NCBI GenBank assembly: GCA_036001065.1
Contig: DASYUQ010000077.1
Location: 12,299 to 76,298 of the forward strand
Direction: 5' to 3'
Source of the DNA: Candidatus Methylomirabilota bacterium
GTDB lineage: Bacteria > Methylomirabilota > Methylomirabilia > Rokubacteriales > CSP1-6
DNA: 64,000 nucleotides
The first letter of the stretch is position 1. Every line of letters begins with the position of its first letter. Of the stretch, positions 1,163 through 8,268 are shown piece by piece. The notes below the pieces were generated by a model that ran no database searches, had not been told where the DNA came from, and was given only the letters and a program-made list of their open reading frames with translations. The translations under genes were made by a program, and so were the position numbers.

Positions 1163-3040
1163 CTATCCAAGGAAATACCGCCTCGGATCGAAGAGCCGGA
1201 TGAGCCGCAGCTCGTCCGGCGTCGGGGGATCGAAGCGCCGCAGGGCCGGGGCGACCTTCAGCTCCCAGCCGCACGCCTCCCGCGCAGCCCGGACGGCTTC
1301 CGCCTCGGGCGGCCCCGCCAGGACGCCCGTCAGGATCAGCTCGGAGCTCTCGTCGGGCTTCTCGTACACGCCCCGGTCCGACACGACGGTCGTGACGCGC
1401 GTGCCCGGCGCCGTGATGTACGGCGCCTTGTCGACGAAGCGCTCCCGGCTCTGGGCCAGCGTCACGACGACCTCCCGCGCCGACGAGGCGATGTCGTTGG
1501 CTCCGCCCGAGCCCGTGATGTACAGGGTCCCCGGCACGATGGTCGAGTTGATGTTGCCGTGCTTGTCGATCTGCCCCGCCGCCAGCGAGCCGAGGCAGCG
1601 GTTCTCGCTCCCGCCCATGAAGATGCCCATAACGTGGAAGATGTCGGTGAGCATCTTGGACGACGGGAAGTTGCGGAACGAGAAGACGAACGGCTCGGCC
1701 GGGCGCGGCAGATAGCCGACCATCCCCGTCTCGGCCATCAGCTCCACGTCGACGCCGGCGGCCTTCAGCTCGTAGGCGCTGAGCCAGGCGGCCAGGTTCG
1801 AGTTGCCCACGCCGGCCAGGAAGGCGCGATAGCCCCGCGCCCTCACCTTCTCGCCGAGCAGGCGCGCCGCGGCCACCACCATCATCTCCGCTGCGGTGAA
1901 GCCGCCGTCGGCGGGAATGGCGGGCGCGAGCATCTCCAGCTCCCAGACCCAGGCGTCGGTGTGGGCGCGGCCCTTGACCTCCATCAGCCGCTGGTAGCCC
2001 AGCCGGGCGACGTAGGCCCCCTGGTCCGGCACCTCCAGCATCCACTCCTTGATCCAGGCCTCCGCCGTCTCGCGCTTCCGGAAGGCGCGGCGCAGCGTGA
2101 GGATGAAGTCGAGGTCCTCCGCGTATCCCTCCAGCTCGGCGACGTTCATGCCGTACATCCCGGCGGGATGGGCCCCGAACGGCGCCTCCACCACGGCCGC
2201 GACGTACTGTCCCGGCAGTCGCACCAACGGGGCGTGGCGGCGGATGAACTCGGTCGAGACGACCTTCTCGACGCTGACGATGGCGCCCCCGCGGGCGGCC
2301 ATCGCCGCGTAGAAGTTCTCGTTGAGGGGCGCGGCGGCGAGGACGTTGCCGGCGCGGTCGGCGGCCCAGGCGTGAAACAGCGCCACATCCGGCTTGAGCG
2401 AGCGCACGAACCCGACCCTTCGAGCGCCGGCTCCGCCGGCACAACCCTCCGATGGGGAGGTTCGGAGGGGGTCGTGAGGCCCTCTCTGACTAGGGATCTC
2501 GGAGGGGGCCGTAACGTCCGCCCCCTCCGAAAAAAACGGGTCGGGGGCGGCGAGGAAATCGCCATCGCGCGCGTTGTCCTCCTCCATCGAGGAGCCGAGC
2601 AGCGAGCGCGTGGGCATGAAGGGCACGCCCAGCGCGCCCCCGATCAGCCTGAGCGGCATCGTCAGCATCGACCAGTTCTGGACGGCCACCTGGCCGCCGA
2701 GCACGGCGCGGCCGACCAGCGGCTGGGGCGTCGGATAAGGATAGCCCTCGCCGATGAAGGTCGTGACGAGGCGCTCGACGAGGCCGCCCACGACGAACGC
2801 CGTCCAGGGCGAGCCGAACCCGGTCATCGCCAGCGTCCAGCCCGGCCTCCGGCCCCACCACTGGCGGATCACCTCTCGCACCAGCGCGTTCGGGCGGCCG
2901 TGGGCGGCGCCCAGGTAGATGGTCTGGCGCGGCGCGATCAGGCGCCGCACCGCCTCCTCCAGGGTCGTCACCTTGTCCGGCCCTTCGGTGGGCGGCAGCG
3001 CGAGGCGTCGCCCGATCAGCTCCGCGTAGTCCGAGCGCAT
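1163..3040 (-). CDS. Family I CoA-transferase, fused alpha-like + beta-like subunits (GctAB/AtoDA-type), with an about 39-aa in-frame repeat-derived insertion
   Basis: 625-aa ORF. The C-terminal half carries the beta-subunit catalytic-glutamate motif (GGSENRCLGSLAAGQIDKHGNINSTIV). The N-terminal half resembles the alpha subunit. Residues about 168-207 (PFFSEGADVTAPSEIPSQRGPHDPLRTSPSEGCAGGAGARRVG) are encoded by repeat copy A. Confidence 0.65.
   Translation of the reverse strand: MRSDYAELIGRRLALPPTEGPDKVTTLEEAVRRLIAPRQTIYLGAAHGRPNALVREVIRQWWGRRPGWTLAMTGFGSPWTAFVVGGLVERLVTTFIGEGYPYPTPQPLVGRAVLGGQVAVQNWSMLTMPLRLIGGALGVPFMPTRSLLGSSMEEDNARDGDFLAAPDPFFSEGADVTAPSEIPSQRGPHDPLRTSPSEGCAGGAGARRVGFVRSLKPDVALFHAWAADRAGNVLAAAPLNENFYAAMAARGGAIVSVEKVVSTEFIRRHAPLVRLPGQYVAAVVEAPFGAHPAGMYGMNVAELEGYAEDLDFILTLRRAFRKRETAEAWIKEWMLEVPDQGAYVARLGYQRLMEVKGRAHTDAWVWELEMLAPAIPADGGFTAAEMMVVAAARLLGEKVRARGYRAFLAGVGNSNLAAWLSAYELKAAGVDVELMAETGMVGYLPRPAEPFVFSFRNFPSSKMLTDIFHVMGIFMGGSENRCLGSLAAGQIDKHGNINSTIVPGTLYITGSGGANDIASSAREVVVTLAQSRERFVDKAPYITAPGTRVTTVVSDRGVYEKPDESSELILTGVLAGPPEAEAVRAAREACGWELKVAPALRRFDPPTPDELRLIRLFDPRRYFLG
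2420..2537. repeat. GC-rich palindromic repeat element, copy A (forward orientation), inside the CoA-transferase CDS in-frame
   Basis: Sequence: ttcgagcgccggctccgccggc...gatggggaggttcggagggggtcgtgaggccctctctgactagggatctcggagggggccgtaacgtccgccccctccgaaaaaaa. It is near-identical to copy B (32414-32520) and shares 5' and 3' modules with copies C, D, E and F. Internal hairpins: GCCGGCtccGCCGGC and TTCGGAGGGGG...CCCCCTCCGAA. Confidence 0.65.
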
Positions 3041-3394: not shown

Positions 3395-5376
3395 TCCAGG
3401 CTCTCCGCCACCAGCTCGCTCACATCTTTGACTTGAAGTCGCTCCTCGGCCCCCTTGACCTTACGGCCCAGGTCGATCATCGCCAGGCAGAAGGGACAGG
3501 CGGTGCCCACCATGGTCGCCTCGGTCTCCAGGGCCTCCTCCACCCGGATGATGTTGACGCGCTTCCGGGACTTCACCTCCATCCACATGTGGCCCCCGCC
3601 CCCGCCGCAGCAGAGCCCGCGTTCGCGGTTGCGCGGCATCTCGATGACCCGGAGACCGGGAAGCGCGCGGGCCACGGCCCGGGGCGCCTCCATGATGCCG
3701 TTGTAGCGTCCGAGATAGCAGGAGTCGTGGAAGGCCAGCGTCGCGTCGAGGGCCTTTTTCGGCTTGATCCGGCCGGCGGCGAGCAGCTCGTTGATGACCA
3801 CCGAGTGGTGGACCACCTCGTAGGTGCCGCCGAACTGGGGGAACTCGTTCTTGATGGTGTTGAAGCAGTGGGGGCAGTGGGTGAGGACCTTCCGGAAGCG
3901 GTACCGGCCCAGCGCCTCGACGTTCTCCTGCTGCACGGTCTGGTACAGGTACTCCTCGCCCAGCCGGCGCGCGACCTCGCCGTGGCAGCGCTCCTCCGGC
4001 ATCACCGCGAAGGACACGCCGGCCGCTTTGAGGATCCTCACCACGGACCGCGCGATCGACTGGTTGCGCTTGTCGTAGGAGGCGGAGCAGCCGACCCAGT
4101 AGAGGTACTCGACCTCTTTGCCCGGCTCCATGAGCGGCACGTCGAGCCCGTGCGCCCAGGCCAGCCGCTCGCTGGCCGGCAGCCCCCAGGGGTTGCCCGC
4201 CCGCTGGATGTTCTGCAGCGATTGCGGCGCCGTCGACGGGAGAGCGCCCTCCGACAGCGCCAGATACCGGCGGAGGTCGATGATGGTGTCGACGATGTCG
4301 ATGAAGGCCGGGCACTCCTGCACGCAGGCCATGCAGGTCGTGCACGCCCACAGCTCCTCGGCCTTGATGAGTTGGCCGTGGATCGGTCCGGGCAGCTCGC
4401 CGTGCAGGTGCCGCTTGAGCTTCACGATGATCTGCTTGGGGGATAGCGCCGTGCCCGCCATGTAGGCGGGGCAGACCGCCTGACAGCGCCCGCACTCCAC
4501 GCACGCGTCGAAGTCTAGCCGTCGCTTCCACGAGAACTCCTCGAGCTTCGAGATGCCGAACGACTCGGCCTCCTCGATGTTCTCGATCTTGGGGATCTCG
4601 CCGCGGGGGCCGAGCTTCGAGAAGAAGATGTTCAGCGGCGTGGTCAGGAGGTGGACGAAGTAGGAGTAGGGGATGACGGCGACGAAGGCCAGGGAGATCG
4701 CCGCGTGGAACAGCCAGGTCCCCAGATGGAGCGCACGCAACGCGCCCTCCGACATCCCGGCCGCCAGCATCGTCCGCCCCAGCGCCCAGCCCACCGGCGA
4801 CCACGGCGCCCACGCCGGCTCGACGACGGCCAGGCGGCAGGCCTCCATGATGAAGCCCGTGAGGTTGATCACGAAGAGCAGGGCCAGCACGCCGGCGAAG
4901 CGCGCCGTGGGATCGAGGCGATCCGGGCGCGCGACGAAGCGCCGCCCCACCGCCATGCCGAGCCCGATGACGAAGAAGAGCCCGAAGAGGTCGAGCACCG
5001 TCTCGTAGAAGAGGTAGAACGGCCCCTGGAGCAGCTTCACGTCGAAGAGCGGCAGCGTGATGTCCCAGTCGATGGTGGCCAGCACGGTGCCCATGAAAAG
5101 GGCGAGGAAGCCCCAGAATATGATCGCGTGCATGACCCCCGGATAGGCCTGGGAGAGTGTGCGGGCCTGGCCGAGCGCGTGCACCAGCACGAGCTTGACG
5201 CGTTCGGGAACCCGGTCGAATCGGTCCTGGGGGCGGCCGGCGCGCCACAGCCGGACGCGCTGCCACATACCGTAGACGAAGACGGCGACGGCCGCGAGGG
5301 CGCCGGCGTAGAGCGCGATCTGAGCCCAGGCCGGAACATTCCAGAAGGTGTCGCGGAACGGAATCTGTCCGGTCAT
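3391..5376 (-). CDS. Membrane-anchored iron-sulfur oxidoreductase: NarI/DsrM-like polytopic N-terminal domain + two 4Fe-4S ferredoxin motifs + two CCG (HdrD/DsrK/GlpC-like) cysteine-rich domains
   Basis: True start is ATG at 5376 (MTGQIPFRDTFWN...), overlapping the meaB stop as ATGA. The track ORF 3391..5925 carries a spurious 183-aa Arg/Gly-rich N-terminal extension. About 5-6 predicted TM helices are followed by CVECGRCQAVCP and CTTCMACVQECP, then the CCG motifs WVGCSASYD and LCCGGGGGHMW...CPFC. The architecture matches DsrMK/HmeCD-type and the membrane FeS oxidoreductases (DUF224) that accompany EtfAB in syntrophs. Confidence 0.65.
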   Translation of the reverse strand: MTGQIPFRDTFWNVPAWAQIALYAGALAAVAVFVYGMWQRVRLWRAGRPQDRFDRVPERVKLVLVHALGQARTLSQAYPGVMHAIIFWGFLALFMGTVLATIDWDITLPLFDVKLLQGPFYLFYETVLDLFGLFFVIGLGMAVGRRFVARPDRLDPTARFAGVLALLFVINLTGFIMEACRLAVVEPAWAPWSPVGWALGRTMLAAGMSEGALRALHLGTWLFHAAISLAFVAVIPYSYFVHLLTTPLNIFFSKLGPRGEIPKIENIEEAESFGISKLEEFSWKRRLDFDACVECGRCQAVCPAYMAGTALSPKQIIVKLKRHLHGELPGPIHGQLIKAEELWACTTCMACVQECPAFIDIVDTIIDLRRYLALSEGALPSTAPQSLQNIQRAGNPWGLPASERLAWAHGLDVPLMEPGKEVEYLYWVGCSASYDKRNQSIARSVVRILKAAGVSFAVMPEERCHGEVARRLGEEYLYQTVQQENVEALGRYRFRKVLTHCPHCFNTIKNEFPQFGGTYEVVHHSVVINELLAAGRIKPKKALDATLAFHDSCYLGRYNGIMEAPRAVARALPGLRVIEMPRNRERGLCCGGGGGHMWMEVKSRKRVNIIRVEEALETEATMVGTACPFCLAMIDLGRKVKGAEERLQVKDVSELVAESLE

Positions 5377-6417: not shown

Positions 6418-6789
6418 ATGCGGGGCCTCCCCATGCTCGTCGCGCTCGCCGCCGCCGAACAGCCCCTCACGCTGCAGCGGGTATGGCTCGACCGCCTGGC
6501 GATCATCATTCCGGCGACCATGGCGACGCGGTGGCTGCTCCTCGCCGACCTCGCCTGCCTGATCGCGCTGGGGCTGGGGATGCGCCGGCCGCTGCTCGGC
6601 GTGGTCCTCACCCTTGGCGGAGGATTCCTTGTCCTCAACGGCCTCGGCATGGCGCTCACGGATTTCTACCTGGGACTCGCCCTCTTTCACTTCGTCGTCG
6701 GCGTCACCGTGGTCCTGTTCGCGCGCCGCGCGCGCTGGCTGGGCGCGGCGGCGCTGGGACTGGCGCTCGTCCTCGGCGCCCTCACCTGA
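6418..6789 (+). CDS. Small hydrophobic membrane protein (hypothetical)
   Basis: 123 aa with about 4 predicted TM helices (LVALAAA..., LLLADLACLIALGL, VVLTLGGGFLVLNGLGMAL, LALFHFVVGVTVVLF). Plus-strand codon usage is GC3-rich. It is convergent with the cytochrome gene, and an alternative start is at 6433. Confidence 0.4.
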   Translation: MRGLPMLVALAAAEQPLTLQRVWLDRLAIIIPATMATRWLLLADLACLIALGLGMRRPLLGVVLTLGGGFLVLNGLGMALTDFYLGLALFHFVVGVTVVLFARRARWLGAAALGLALVLGALT

Positions 6790-6797
6790 TGACGGCC

Positions 6798-7355
6798 TTA
6801 CATCTCCTTGTGGCACTCCAGGCAGATGGGGACGACGAGCGTCCTGGAGATAAACCGGTTGGTGGCGTCGCTGTCCGTCGTGTGCGTCGTGTGACAGCGC
6901 ACGCAAGCCACCCTCACCGTGTCGTGCTCGCGGATGGCATGGTAGGAGGTGCCTCCCCGGCCTTCGGTCGCCTCCTCGGCCTCGAACTCCGCACCGGGGT
7001 CGACGGCCCGCGCCGGGCTCCCCGCCGCCTCGCCGTCGGCGCGCGACACGCGCAGAATCGGCGTGTGGCACTGGCGGCAGTCGGCGTCGCGCAGCGGCAG
7101 CCGCATGTGCGTCGGCTCCTGATAGGCGCCGGCCAGGAACTTCAGCGTGTCGAACCCCGCCACGGCCCAGACCGTCAAGCGCATCCCGGAATCGGCGCCG
7201 CCGTGACAGGCGATGCACCCGACCGCCGCGTCCTGGCGGTGATGCTGCCCGGCCAGATCGCCAGGCATGGCCGCGGTCAGACCCCCGAACTTCTCATCGT
7301 GCAGGTGGCAGGAGACGCAGAAGCGGTTGTCGCGCTCCTTGGCGGCGAGCGCCAC
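6798..7355 (-). CDS. NapC/NirT/NrfH-family membrane-anchored multiheme cytochrome c (5 CxxCH); likely N-terminal extension to about 7436
   Basis: The ORF from GTG 7355 contains CVSCH, CIACH, CRQCH, CVRCH and CLECH. In-frame upstream codons (no stop back to 7445) encode a TM anchor, IARSFGRSLALWAAGGAGALLLGSLFLVALAAKERDNRFCVSCH. This is the NrfH/NapC arrangement (TM helix, then first heme). The only start-like codon there is ATC at 7436, 8 nt after a GAGAGGAGGA Shine-Dalgarno. Confidence 0.6.
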   Translation of the reverse strand: MALAAKERDNRFCVSCHLHDEKFGGLTAAMPGDLAGQHHRQDAAVGCIACHGGADSGMRLTVWAVAGFDTLKFLAGAYQEPTHMRLPLRDADCRQCHTPILRVSRADGEAAGSPARAVDPGAEFEAEEATEGRGGTSYHAIREHDTVRVACVRCHTTHTTDSDATNRFISRTLVVPICLECHKEM

Positions 7356-7461
7356 CAGGAAGAGCGAACCGAGAAGCAGGGCTCCCGCCCCGCCCGCCGC
7401 CCAGAGTGCGAGAGACCGTCCGAACGACCGGGCGATGGCGGGAGTCCTCCTCTCGCGGGTG

Positions 7462-8268
7462 CTAGCGAACGGTCACCATCACCGGCTTGGCGAACATAAT
7501 GTGCCCCGACGGACCACCGCCACCACCTCGCGGCAGCACCGCGCCGGTCGGCGTCGTCACGGTGCCCACGGACGAGGCCTTCTCGGAGCCGTAGTGGAAG
7601 GCGGCGGTGATCGAGTACGTACCGGGCTCCTGCGGGGCCTTCACGGCCCACACGACCTTGCCCTCGGCCGGCTTCCGGGCGGCCAGATCAGTCTTCTGAT
7701 CGAAGATGACGACGCTATTGAGGTTCTTCTTGAGTCCGGCCGCACGGCTATCCACCCACTTGGTCTGCTCCTGGCCATCGCCGCCCCACGCCTTTGGAGG
7801 ACCGACGATCAGCCAACCGTCGCCCTGGACCGGTCGCGCCTGGAAGCGGAGGTCGGTGTCGACCAGGAACACCCCGACGGCCCCGTGGCCCCCCTTGACC
7901 GTCACCGTGATCTGGGTCTCCTGACCCGGTCGGAGGCTGGTCGGGGCGCTGAGGTTCACCGAGGCGAGCTCGTCCATCAGCTTGACGTCGGCCAGCAGCT
8001 TCTGGCGGTCGGCGGGCTGCATCTGCTGATAGGGGCCCGCGCCATCCTCGATGGCCTTGTAGTGCTTGTTCTCCTTGACCTGGCTGTTGGCGAACGCCTC
8101 CGGCTCGTTCCGTAACTGGTCCTTGGAGACGGACGAGTGGCAGGCGGCACACGTCGGGGCGAGATCGGTAACGTTGCGCAGCGGCCCGCCATTATAGGCG
8201 GCAGCCGGCGGCACGCCGAAGGGAAGCAGCATTGCTGCGAGGCCGAGAACGCTGGCAAATCGTTTCAT
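7462..8268 (-). CDS. Secreted monoheme c-type cytochrome-domain protein
   Basis: True start ATG at 8268 (MKRFASVLGLAAMLLPFGVPPAAAYNGG...) with a GGGGGA RBS. It has a signal peptide, a single CAACH heme motif about 20 aa after the cleavage site, and an about 220-aa C-terminal domain. The upstream 149 aa of track ORF 7462..8715 is an Arg/Ser-rich artefact. Confidence 0.55.
   Translation of the reverse strand: MKRFASVLGLAAMLLPFGVPPAAAYNGGPLRNVTDLAPTCAACHSSVSKDQLRNEPEAFANSQVKENKHYKAIEDGAGPYQQMQPADRQKLLADVKLMDELASVNLSAPTSLRPGQETQITVTVKGGHGAVGVFLVDTDLRFQARPVQGDGWLIVGPPKAWGGDGQEQTKWVDSRAAGLKKNLNSVVIFDQKTDLAARKPAEGKVVWAVKAPQEPGTYSITAAFHYGSEKASSVGTVTTPTGAVLPRGGGGGPSGHIMFAKPVMVTVR

Follow-up and report, generated by a model that had tools for sequence, protein, structure and literature searches.

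To our knowledge, bacteria very seldom start a gene naturally at anything but AUG, GUG or UUG, and where they do, the codon is mostly AUU. In Escherichia coli, AUC initiates translation at 1-2% of the AUG level with methionine at the N-terminus, and the only confirmed natural cases in that organism are infC (encoding IF3) and pcnB, both of which begin with AUU (bioRxiv 10.1101/063800). A study of Enterococcus faecalis describes ebpA expression as attenuated by an ATT start (PMC4447247), and IF3 has been described as discriminating against near-cognate start codons (PMC9723500). In infC, pcnB and ebpA, the gene's own AUN start limits or regulates expression. The gene for a pentaheme c-type cytochrome considered here shares with all three a near-cognate AUN codon placed after a Shine-Dalgarno sequence, and differs from them in several respects: the codon is AUC rather than AUU; the case is known from sequence comparison alone; the product is a respiratory-type membrane cytochrome of an uncultured phylum; and, within the family, ATC has been swapped repeatedly with ATG and GTG. 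Our literature search recovered nothing published on the start codons of Rokubacteria, and the reports of ATC starts that it returned were nearly all mitochondrial.

The gene lies on the minus strand of the window (the whole 64-kb stretch of DNA analysed), as the second of a pair. The first gene (7462..8268, minus strand; ATG at 8268 to TAG at 7464-7462, from the ORF and its translation) encodes a 268-aa protein predicted to be secreted, with a signal-peptide-like N-terminus and a sole CxxCH motif, CAACH (8151-8137). An intergenic gap of 25 nt (7461-7437, minus strand) separates the stop codon of this partner from an ATC triplet, with which the pentaheme gene begins (6798..7436, minus strand; 212 codons plus TAA at 6800-6798). 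Its motifs are CVSCH, CIACH, CRQCH, CVRCH and CLECH (minus-strand sites at 7319-7305, 7217-7203, 7079-7065, 6905-6891 and 6824-6810). The ATC (7434..7436, minus strand; AUC in the transcript) is the proposed initiation codon on the basis of the orthologue start column, and is preceded, across an 8-nt spacer, by the strong Shine-Dalgarno sequence GAGAGGAGGA (7445..7454, minus strand; read from the sequence); GGAGGA 8 nt upstream is what an AUN start would call for. Between 7436 and 7356 lie 27 codons without an ATG, GTG or TTG, and the earliest canonical start of this frame is the GTG at 7353..7355 (minus strand; from the ORF listing); the window offers no canonical in-frame start for an exportable protein, as expected of a near-cognate AUN gene. 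The initial annotation had reported the secreted one-CxxCH ORF, the 25-nt spacing, the five-CxxCH second ORF, the missing canonical start and the strong Shine-Dalgarno sequence, all of which hold at the positions given above.

Taken alone, the absence of a canonical start is weak evidence and lends little support to an AUC start. Canonical-start triplets were taken, as a rough estimate, to make up ~5% of codons (ATG n = 174 and GTG n = 327 in frame in the 16 genes counted; genome G+C 70%), and by an equally rough estimate a run of 27 codons without one has a chance probability of about one in four. The weight of the case for AUC therefore comes from the requirement for the N-terminal helix and from the comparative data, rather than from the mere absence of a start. 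ATC is also the dominant isoleucine codon here (369/384), so the occurrence of ATC rather than ATT or ATA at the start column is itself uninformative.

Codons 2-32 (7341..7433, minus strand) encode a positively charged head, ARSFGRS, and a hydrophobic helix of ~24 residues. A 19-residue hydropathy peak of 2.01 over residues 13-31 fits a helix that spans the membrane or acts as a signal anchor, and the segment as a whole is predicted to serve as a signal anchor or as a signal peptide of unusual length. The N-terminal segment was exactly 32 codons long, and free of indels, in 45 ATC-type sequences; its uncorrected pN/pS was 0.61, vs 0.34 for the following 60 codons, which points to only moderate purifying selection on the segment and is given no weight in the argument. 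The original view of an intact gene with an obligatory N-terminal hydrophobic segment is supported.

We compared the start region across 74 distinct orthologues, drawn from genomes and metagenomes of Rokubacteria that are independent of one another. In the alignment, the start column held ATC in 49, ATT in 2, ATG in 15, GTG in 7 and TTC in 1, that is, a conserved AUN codon which, the single TTC apart, trades only with other start codons; AUC accordingly occupies this column in about two-thirds of the soil Rokubacteria relatives. Ordinary substitutes such as GTC or CTC were absent from the column, which translates as I, M or V (from GTG) plus a single F, and the flanking columns were variable. 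In orthologues with neither ATC nor ATT, and with the TTC case set aside, a canonical ATG or GTG sits at the equivalent or a neighbouring codon, the ±1-codon offsets that align GTG and some ATC lineages having been placed by eye. The context gcc-ATC-gSc-cgS with GGAGG upstream recurs in independent assemblies whose proteins are 97, 84, 83 and 74% identical, and ATC itself persists down to ~55% protein identity, across many samples and assemblers, and in one Eisenbacteria homologue. An independent, 97%-identical contig (L001) reads ATC at the same position, and the suggestion that reads might reveal ATG at 7436 was thus not borne out. The rare AUC initiator that the initial annotation had offered as one option is instead strongly supported by ATC or ATT at the start column in 51/74 orthologues.

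Exchange between start codons was visible in close relatives. A 70%-identical relative (L126) reads ACTCCCGCC-ATG where the window reads ACTCCCGCC-ATC, with an identical 5' context, and in another (L127) an ATG has been gained one codon upstream with the ATC retained (ATG-ATC). At least seven switches between canonical and non-canonical start types were counted on a neighbour-joining tree. Among the 51 ATC/ATT genes, 31 lacked a canonical start compatible with retention of the helix, and in 14 of the 51 the open upstream region contained no canonical start of any kind. Two lineages do not fit: L050/L051, with TTC at the column, and L017, which has neither a canonical start nor a clear Shine-Dalgarno motif. 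A core GGAGG, GGAG or GAGG lay 7-11 nt upstream in 43/51 ATC/ATT orthologues vs 7/15 ATG orthologues (Fisher p = 0.0055), as expected if the commoner Shine-Dalgarno sequence compensates for a weak codon. On this comparison, the putative AUC start is a conserved trait of the pentaheme family in Rokubacteria and not a one-genome accident. Dozens of lineages retain it, with repeated exchange for AUG and GUG, and it would constitute a clean natural example of such a start.

We consider it probable, at roughly 85%, that translation of the pentaheme cytochrome begins at the near-cognate AUC at 7436-7434. Sequence comparison shows which codon is present, in what context, how it is conserved and that it interchanges with ATG and GTG; from this we infer initiation at the ATC, insertion of methionine and a purpose in the tuning or coupling of expression. 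Lying 8 nt ahead, the strong Shine-Dalgarno sequence would set AUC in the ribosomal P site, where the initiator fMet-tRNA would presumably read it despite a mismatch at the third position. Translation would then yield M-ARSFGRS and, after it, the hydrophobic helix, which would direct the heme domain to the periplasmic face, where the Ccm and Sec machinery could attach the five hemes. By analogy with infC, pcnB and ebpA, the weak start most likely holds synthesis of the membrane cytochrome below that of its partner, and it may also couple pentaheme synthesis to translation of the partner 25 nt upstream.

A stronger version of this proposal, which we regard as possible though tentative, is that AUC is a selected regulatory device that fixes the stoichiometry of a two-protein redox module. 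The pentaheme subunit would then be synthesised solely or chiefly by ribosomes that have just completed the partner gene 15-34 nt upstream, or else solely under relaxed IF3 discrimination. A non-canonical start was present in 51/74 genes when the pentaheme gene was second in the pair vs 1/10 when it was first (p = 0.0006, a phylogenetically confounded comparison), and this bias, together with the stronger Shine-Dalgarno sequences of ATC genes, is consistent with selection of the codon. With this pair, the tuning of expression between two subunits of a redox module could be put to the test. The module itself would consist of a quinol-facing pentaheme protein and a possibly cytochrome-f-like, monoheme beta-sandwich protein, and was previously uncharacterised.

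The confinement of most ATC starts to one phylum could alternatively reflect a start-codon rule relaxed across Rokubacteria, or a dedicated initiator tRNA that reads AUC. We judge this improbable, albeit the least so of the competing explanations: in the 64-kb window, no other high-GC3 ORF was found to begin with a credible combination of a Shine-Dalgarno sequence and ATC or ATT, and ~30 Pfam-annotated window genes, when read from canonical codons, show no domain cut at its N-terminal end. Within the window, the ATC start looks gene-specific.

Initiation at a different near-cognate codon (CUG at codon 24 or 31), or reinitiation in the gap independently of a Shine-Dalgarno sequence, is slightly less probable again. 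CTG codons do lie within the helix, and the gap to the partner stop is short (15-34 nt). However, the CTG positions are not conserved, would leave nine or fewer hydrophobic residues and lack a preceding Shine-Dalgarno sequence, and among the in-frame codons from the partner stop to the ATC none besides the ATC is near-cognate. It is also ATC that stands in the column aligning with the ATG of relatives.

A canonical start farther downstream (GTG 7355 in the window; GTG, TTG or ATG elsewhere), with the preceding stretch left as an untranslated leader, is what gene callers have modelled. In a 97%-identical protein (P0001) the model began at the codon matching GTG 7355, giving 185 aa, and other models ran to 191 aa (P0003) or ~204 aa (P0002 and P0005). 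We give this explanation little credence. The 185-aa product of the window gene would lose its export signal and most of the helix, so that maturation as a c-type cytochrome would be impossible; internal start positions differ between lineages, and 14 have none. In 45 sequences, moreover, the supposed leader stays in frame and at exactly 32 codons, with its arginines and hydrophobic character retained, and it matches the N-termini of ATG-initiated relatives residue for residue. A start downstream of the transmembrane segment was looked for among the orthologues, and those with canonical starts instead begin upstream of the helix. GTG 7355 is a false start chosen by gene callers. In public databases, every gene caller has either cut short the N-terminus of this family or put it in the wrong place. 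A mis-called N-terminus makes a membrane or periplasmic cytochrome look cytoplasmic, and skews the metabolism reconstructed for a phylum that is abundant in soil.

Fusion of the two products by programmed frameshifting or stop-codon readthrough, which would make the ATC an internal isoleucine codon, is very unlikely. The pentaheme frame does remain open across the partner stop in the window, and in one relative (L002) both ORFs share a frame. The relation between frames is not conserved, however: the distances from the partner stop to the ATC (15, 18, 19, 20, 23, 24, 25, 27, 28, 29, 31, 32 and 34 nt) fall in all three frames, so that a conserved fusion of either kind is excluded. Gene order is also reversed in other phyla, in a fusion the helix would have the heme domain on its cytoplasmic side, and folding of the intergenic region showed RNA structure no more stable than that of shuffled sequence (z = -0.13). 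Finally, although ATG is one substitution away from ATC and occupies the column in 15/74 orthologues, the other option of the initial annotation, that a true or ancestral ATG was misread in sequencing or assembly or mutated to ATC very recently, is refuted by the recurrence of ATC in 49 distinct, independent orthologues, which as error would demand a motif-specific base-calling artefact of a kind not known.

The pentaheme protein had also been assigned to the NapC/NrfH family, and this assignment did not hold. NapC, NirT, NrfH and CymA are tetraheme quinol dehydrogenases, which it resembles in its size (~200 aa), in a single N-terminal helix directly before the first CxxCH (at residue 40, ahead of heme 1), and in weak profile similarity over the end of the helix and hemes 1-3. 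It differs in having five CxxCH motifs rather than four, in a first motif that reads CxxCHLH, that of NrfH being CxxCHxM, and in the lack of an adjoining NrfA, Nap, Tor or Dms gene. Both family models scored far below their curated cut-offs, PF03264 at 14.4 bits (cut-off 24.1) and TIGR03153 at 33.5 (cut-off 134.2; E = 3.7e-8 over residues 28-129); PF03264 was matched at E ≤ 0.01 by 11/24 relatives, in their N-terminal part. A profile search of PDB sequences with the pentaheme alignment returned no NrfH or CymA chains, its matches being weak and of generic multiheme type (decaheme 6r2q_A, NrfA and cytochrome c3). Similarity to NapC/NrfH thus appears remote.

By contrast, the C-terminal half (residues ~111-211) resembles Paired_CXXCH_1 and cytochrome c3-c7 domains (PF09699, TIGR01905, PF14537 and PF14522). 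The protein passed PF09699 (34.3 vs a cut-off of 20.6) and TIGR01905 (29.2 vs 25.2), and c3/c7-type models matched this half in 24/24 relatives tested, although such models describe generic heme-packing modules and say nothing on function. All five CxxCH motifs were invariant in 24 relatives, as were histidines H46, H65, H166, H171 and H185; these five additional histidines would suffice for five bis-His hemes. An AlphaFold2 model of the apoprotein (pLDDT 52.6) was too poor for a fold search. The pair may plausibly form an electron relay from quinol to the periplasm, as first suggested.

The partner has 361 homologues, all unnamed and none with a precomputed Pfam domain, and its invariant residues are C40, C43, H44 and H69. 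No sequence similarity to solved chains was found. Its AlphaFold2 model (pLDDT 65.7) contains a C-terminal Ig-like beta-sandwich (residues 103-267); cytochrome f, a beta-sandwich hemoprotein whose mature N-terminus ligates the heme and a lead for the partner alone, ranked 19th among generic Ig-like matches to it. The partner has no C-terminal anchor, and the heme region of its model falls below pLDDT 50.

Around the pair, the window carries RimI, TsaB, MeaB, an FeS/CCG membrane protein and other housekeeping genes, and Rfam and tRNA scans of the window found nothing. A hydrophobic, convergent ORF of 123 aa (6418..6789, plus strand) lies just downstream of the pentaheme gene; it had no Pfam or NCBIfam match, and a homologue in convergent orientation was detected by tblastn at 64/74 loci. 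No gene for a periplasmic terminal reductase (NrfA, NapAB, TorA, DmsA and similar) was adjacent in the window or at distant loci, and no conserved external terminal or catalytic partner stood beside the pair in any lineage examined. The only constant neighbour of the pentaheme gene is that of the 268-aa monoheme protein, a homologue of which lies directly upstream in 71/74 orthologous loci. The two make up a stand-alone two-gene module, also in other phyla, which was present in Rokubacteria, Binatia, Eisenbacteria and deltaproteobacterial MAGs.

On the minus strand of the window, the partner ORF of 268 codons (ATG 8268 to TAG 7464-7462), with an N-terminus resembling a signal peptide and one CAACH motif, is followed by a 25-nt intergenic gap that contains GAGAGGAGGA (7454-7445) and, after an 8-nt spacer, leads to an ATC codon (7436-7434) in frame with the five-CxxCH (pentaheme) ORF ending at TAA 6800-6798. 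Re-reading of the window bore out the coordinates and sequence statements of the initial annotation for this cytochrome pair, including the five CxxCH motifs. In a mechanical ORF list, GTG 7355 was the first ATG, GTG or TTG past the upstream in-frame stop of the pentaheme frame, and the 27 codons for ARSFGRS and the hydrophobic stretch contain no canonical start in frame; N-terminal hydropathy reaches its maximum of 2.01 over residues 13-31. Few in-frame codons are canonical-start triplets (174 ATG and 327 GTG across the 16 genes counted), and at 70% G+C we estimate that about one run in four of this length would be devoid of them, which is not rare. It is therefore function and comparison that carry the case for AUC initiation, rather than the lack of canonical starts as such.

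The pentaheme protein exceeded the Pfam cut-offs for Paired_CXXCH_1 (34.3 bits) and Cytochrom_c3_2 (28.8 bits, cut-off 25) and fell slightly below that for Cytochrome_C7 (24.6 bits, cut-off 24.8); these domains are generic multiheme modules. It had initially been assigned to the NapC/NrfH family, a placement that every curated criterion argued against: NapC/NirT (PF03264) scored 14.4 bits, below its cut-off of 24.1, and the NCBIfam equivalog model for NrfH matched residues 28-129 (E = 3.7e-8) at 33.5 bits, far below the cut-off of 134.2. PF03264 was detected at E ≤ 0.01 in 11 of 24 relatives, and searching a profile of the pentaheme family against all PDB sequences returned no NrfH or CymA chain. 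The likeness is one of architecture (a single N-terminal helix ahead of heme 1) and remote similarity, whereas NapC/NrfH proteins have four hemes, not five. Beyond the five CxxCH histidines, H46, H65, H166, H171 and H185 are invariant in relatives and, judging from this conservation, would suffice for five bis-His hemes. The AF2 model was unreliable (pLDDT 52.6).

The pentaheme family comprised 256 database matches, the named ones all from Candidatus Rokubacteria/Rokuibacteriota (Methylomirabilota). Comparison of start codons across orthologues, proposed as a check at the outset, placed the methionine of many relatives opposite the window ATC, ahead of the hydrophobic helix: many relatives of 200-220 aa begin with M-x-R-S-L-G-R-R-L, aligned exactly with I-A-R-S-F-G-R-S-L in the window. 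Gene models of the four nearest relatives (97, 84, 83 and 74% identity) each began at a different internal codon; the underlying DNA, which comes from independent samples, carries an identical gcc-ATC-gSc-cgS with GGAGG 7-8 nt upstream. Using loci from GTDB species genomes (37) and metagenomes (80), we anchored the alignment on the invariant KERDNRFC motif and took the codon 32 positions upstream as the start column, with offsets, all set by eye, of 31 or 33 codons for a few lineages and 28 for the divergent L029 and L031. Counted over 74 distinct mature proteins, this column was ATC in 49, ATT in 2, ATG in 15, GTG in 7 and TTC in 1. Its translation held only I, M or V (GTG) and the single F, flanking columns varied freely, and GTC, CTC, GCC or similar codons never occurred among the 74 orthologues.

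A canonical start preserving the helix is absent from 31 of the 51 ATC/ATT genes, and in 14 the open upstream region lacks any canonical start. The rare AUC initiator first offered as one of two options is strongly supported by ATC/ATT in 51 of 74 orthologues and by exchange with ATG/GTG in the start column; at least seven switches between non-canonical and canonical starts were required on a neighbour-joining tree. An orthologue at 70% identity (L126) reads gggagACTCCCGCC-ATG-GGC against ggaggACTCCCGCC-ATC-GCC in the window, another (L127) reads aggattcg-ATG-ATC-gct, an ATG having arisen one codon upstream of the kept ATC, and an Eisenbacteria homologue (L042) independently has ATC at the position of its relatives' ATG. 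Of the 51 ATC/ATT genes, 43 have a Shine-Dalgarno core 7-11 nt upstream, versus 7 of 15 ATG genes (p = 0.0055), an excess consistent with the motif compensating for a weak codon. Over its 32 codons, the N-terminal segment had zero indels in 45 sequences and an uncorrected pN/pS of 0.61, versus 0.34 in the following 60 codons, a moderate constraint such as an anchor helix would predict. Taken at the level of sequence, the comparison establishes a near-cognate codon at optimal Shine-Dalgarno spacing, conserved family-wide and interchangeable with ATG/GTG.

Two loci of one lineage (L050, JGI25382J43887_10006065; L051, Ga0066710_100067480) have TTC, which is not near-cognate, in the start column behind a good GGAGG, and their sole canonical codons lie deep within the helix; the start may be decaying, or another site may be used for initiation. 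A Methylomirabilia orthologue (L017, JBGPTW010000150.1, ~2880-3000) has a longer N-terminus with three in-frame ATC codons, no ATG/GTG/TTG ahead of the first heme motif and no clear Shine-Dalgarno motif.

Translation from a downstream canonical codon is very improbable: in the window it would give a product without an export signal, and in relatives such codons are inconsistently placed or absent. We consider slightly less probable still a fusion to the partner ORF by frameshifting or readthrough, given that the stop-to-ATC distance is 15-34 nt with all three frames represented, that other phyla have the two genes in the opposite order, that the topology of a fusion would be wrong for heme attachment and that the intergenic RNA between partner and ATC shows no unusual structure (z = -0.13). 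A general relaxation of start-codon usage was not supported in the 64-kb window, where a scan of the 5' ends of high-GC3 ORFs gave no second credible Shine-Dalgarno plus ATC/ATT start and some 30 Pfam-annotated genes showed no N-terminally truncated domains. The other option first offered, a point error or recent ATG-to-ATC mutation, is ruled out, as ATC recurs across independent assemblies by the dozen.

In initiation at the ATC, AUC would be read by the initiator tRNA with a third-position mismatch and methionine would be inserted. AUC in Escherichia coli supports 1-2% of AUG-level initiation, with N-terminal Met, and rare AUU starts limit expression of infC and pcnB (bioRxiv 10.1101/063800); near-cognate codons are discriminated against by IF3 (PMC9723500), and ebpA expression is also limited by a rare AUU start (PMC4447247). 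By analogy, the AUC start would likely hold the membrane pentaheme subunit below stoichiometry with its upstream partner, or make its translation depend on that partner. Non-canonical starts occur in 51 of 74 loci with the pentaheme gene second in the pair versus 1 of 10 with it first (p = 0.0006, confounded by phylogeny), an association that agrees with translational coupling but is only suggestive. Near-cognate initiation is already known; its family-wide conservation at AUC, for a cytochrome gene from an uncultured phylum, seems not to have been reported before: no publication on start codon usage in Rokubacteria came to light, and the ATC-start literature is almost entirely mitochondrial. 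A practical consequence for annotation is that public models of the family have the wrong N-terminus, and the conserved start raises a testable regulatory hypothesis.

The partner is conserved even more than the pentaheme cytochrome (66-98% identity among the matches listed); its 361 matches are all unnamed, none has a Pfam domain, and the CxxCH and H69 are invariant in homologues. In 71 of 74 loci, the pentaheme gene is immediately preceded by a homologue. At 28-47% identity, the pair recurs in reverse order in MAGs labelled Deltaproteobacteria, Binatia and Eisenbacteria (L034-L044), where pentaheme starts are canonical save for the ATC of L042 and no neighbour genes are common. In the window its neighbours are RimI, TsaB, MeaB, a TM + 2x[4Fe-4S] + CCG protein and other housekeeping genes. 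With no terminal reductase or oxidase conserved beside it in the window or the distant loci, the pair looks like a self-contained membrane-to-periplasm electron relay, and the monoheme partner may itself be the terminal element. In one Rokubacteria lineage (L007 2411-4589, L008 2773-4951), three extra genes lie between RimI and the pentaheme gene, encoding a 270-aa protein that gives a faint match to cytochrome c, a cytochrome c' (PF01322) and, immediately before the pentaheme gene, a partner homologue (P0132, 256 aa, 83% identity).

Genes across the window (1-64000) are nearly all on the minus strand and housekeeping in nature (purine biosynthesis cluster, PNPase, IF2, SHMT, NrdR, ThiI), and no tRNA or Rfam family was detected in its 64 kb. 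Directly downstream of the pentaheme gene and convergent with it, a plus-strand ORF (6418-6789) encodes a 123-aa hydrophobic protein with no Pfam or NCBIfam match; 64 of 74 orthologous loci have a homologue in this place, likewise convergent, and the ORF might belong to the module as its third component. The gene for the MeaB GTPase (6368-5373, minus) overlaps by ATGA (5373-5376), as also in L002, the start of a gene (5376-3391, minus) whose product, a membrane protein of 661 aa, combines 2x[4Fe-4S] with two CCG domains in an HdrD/DsrK-like architecture; it is unusual for a G-protein chaperone to be paired with a membrane FeS oxidoreductase.
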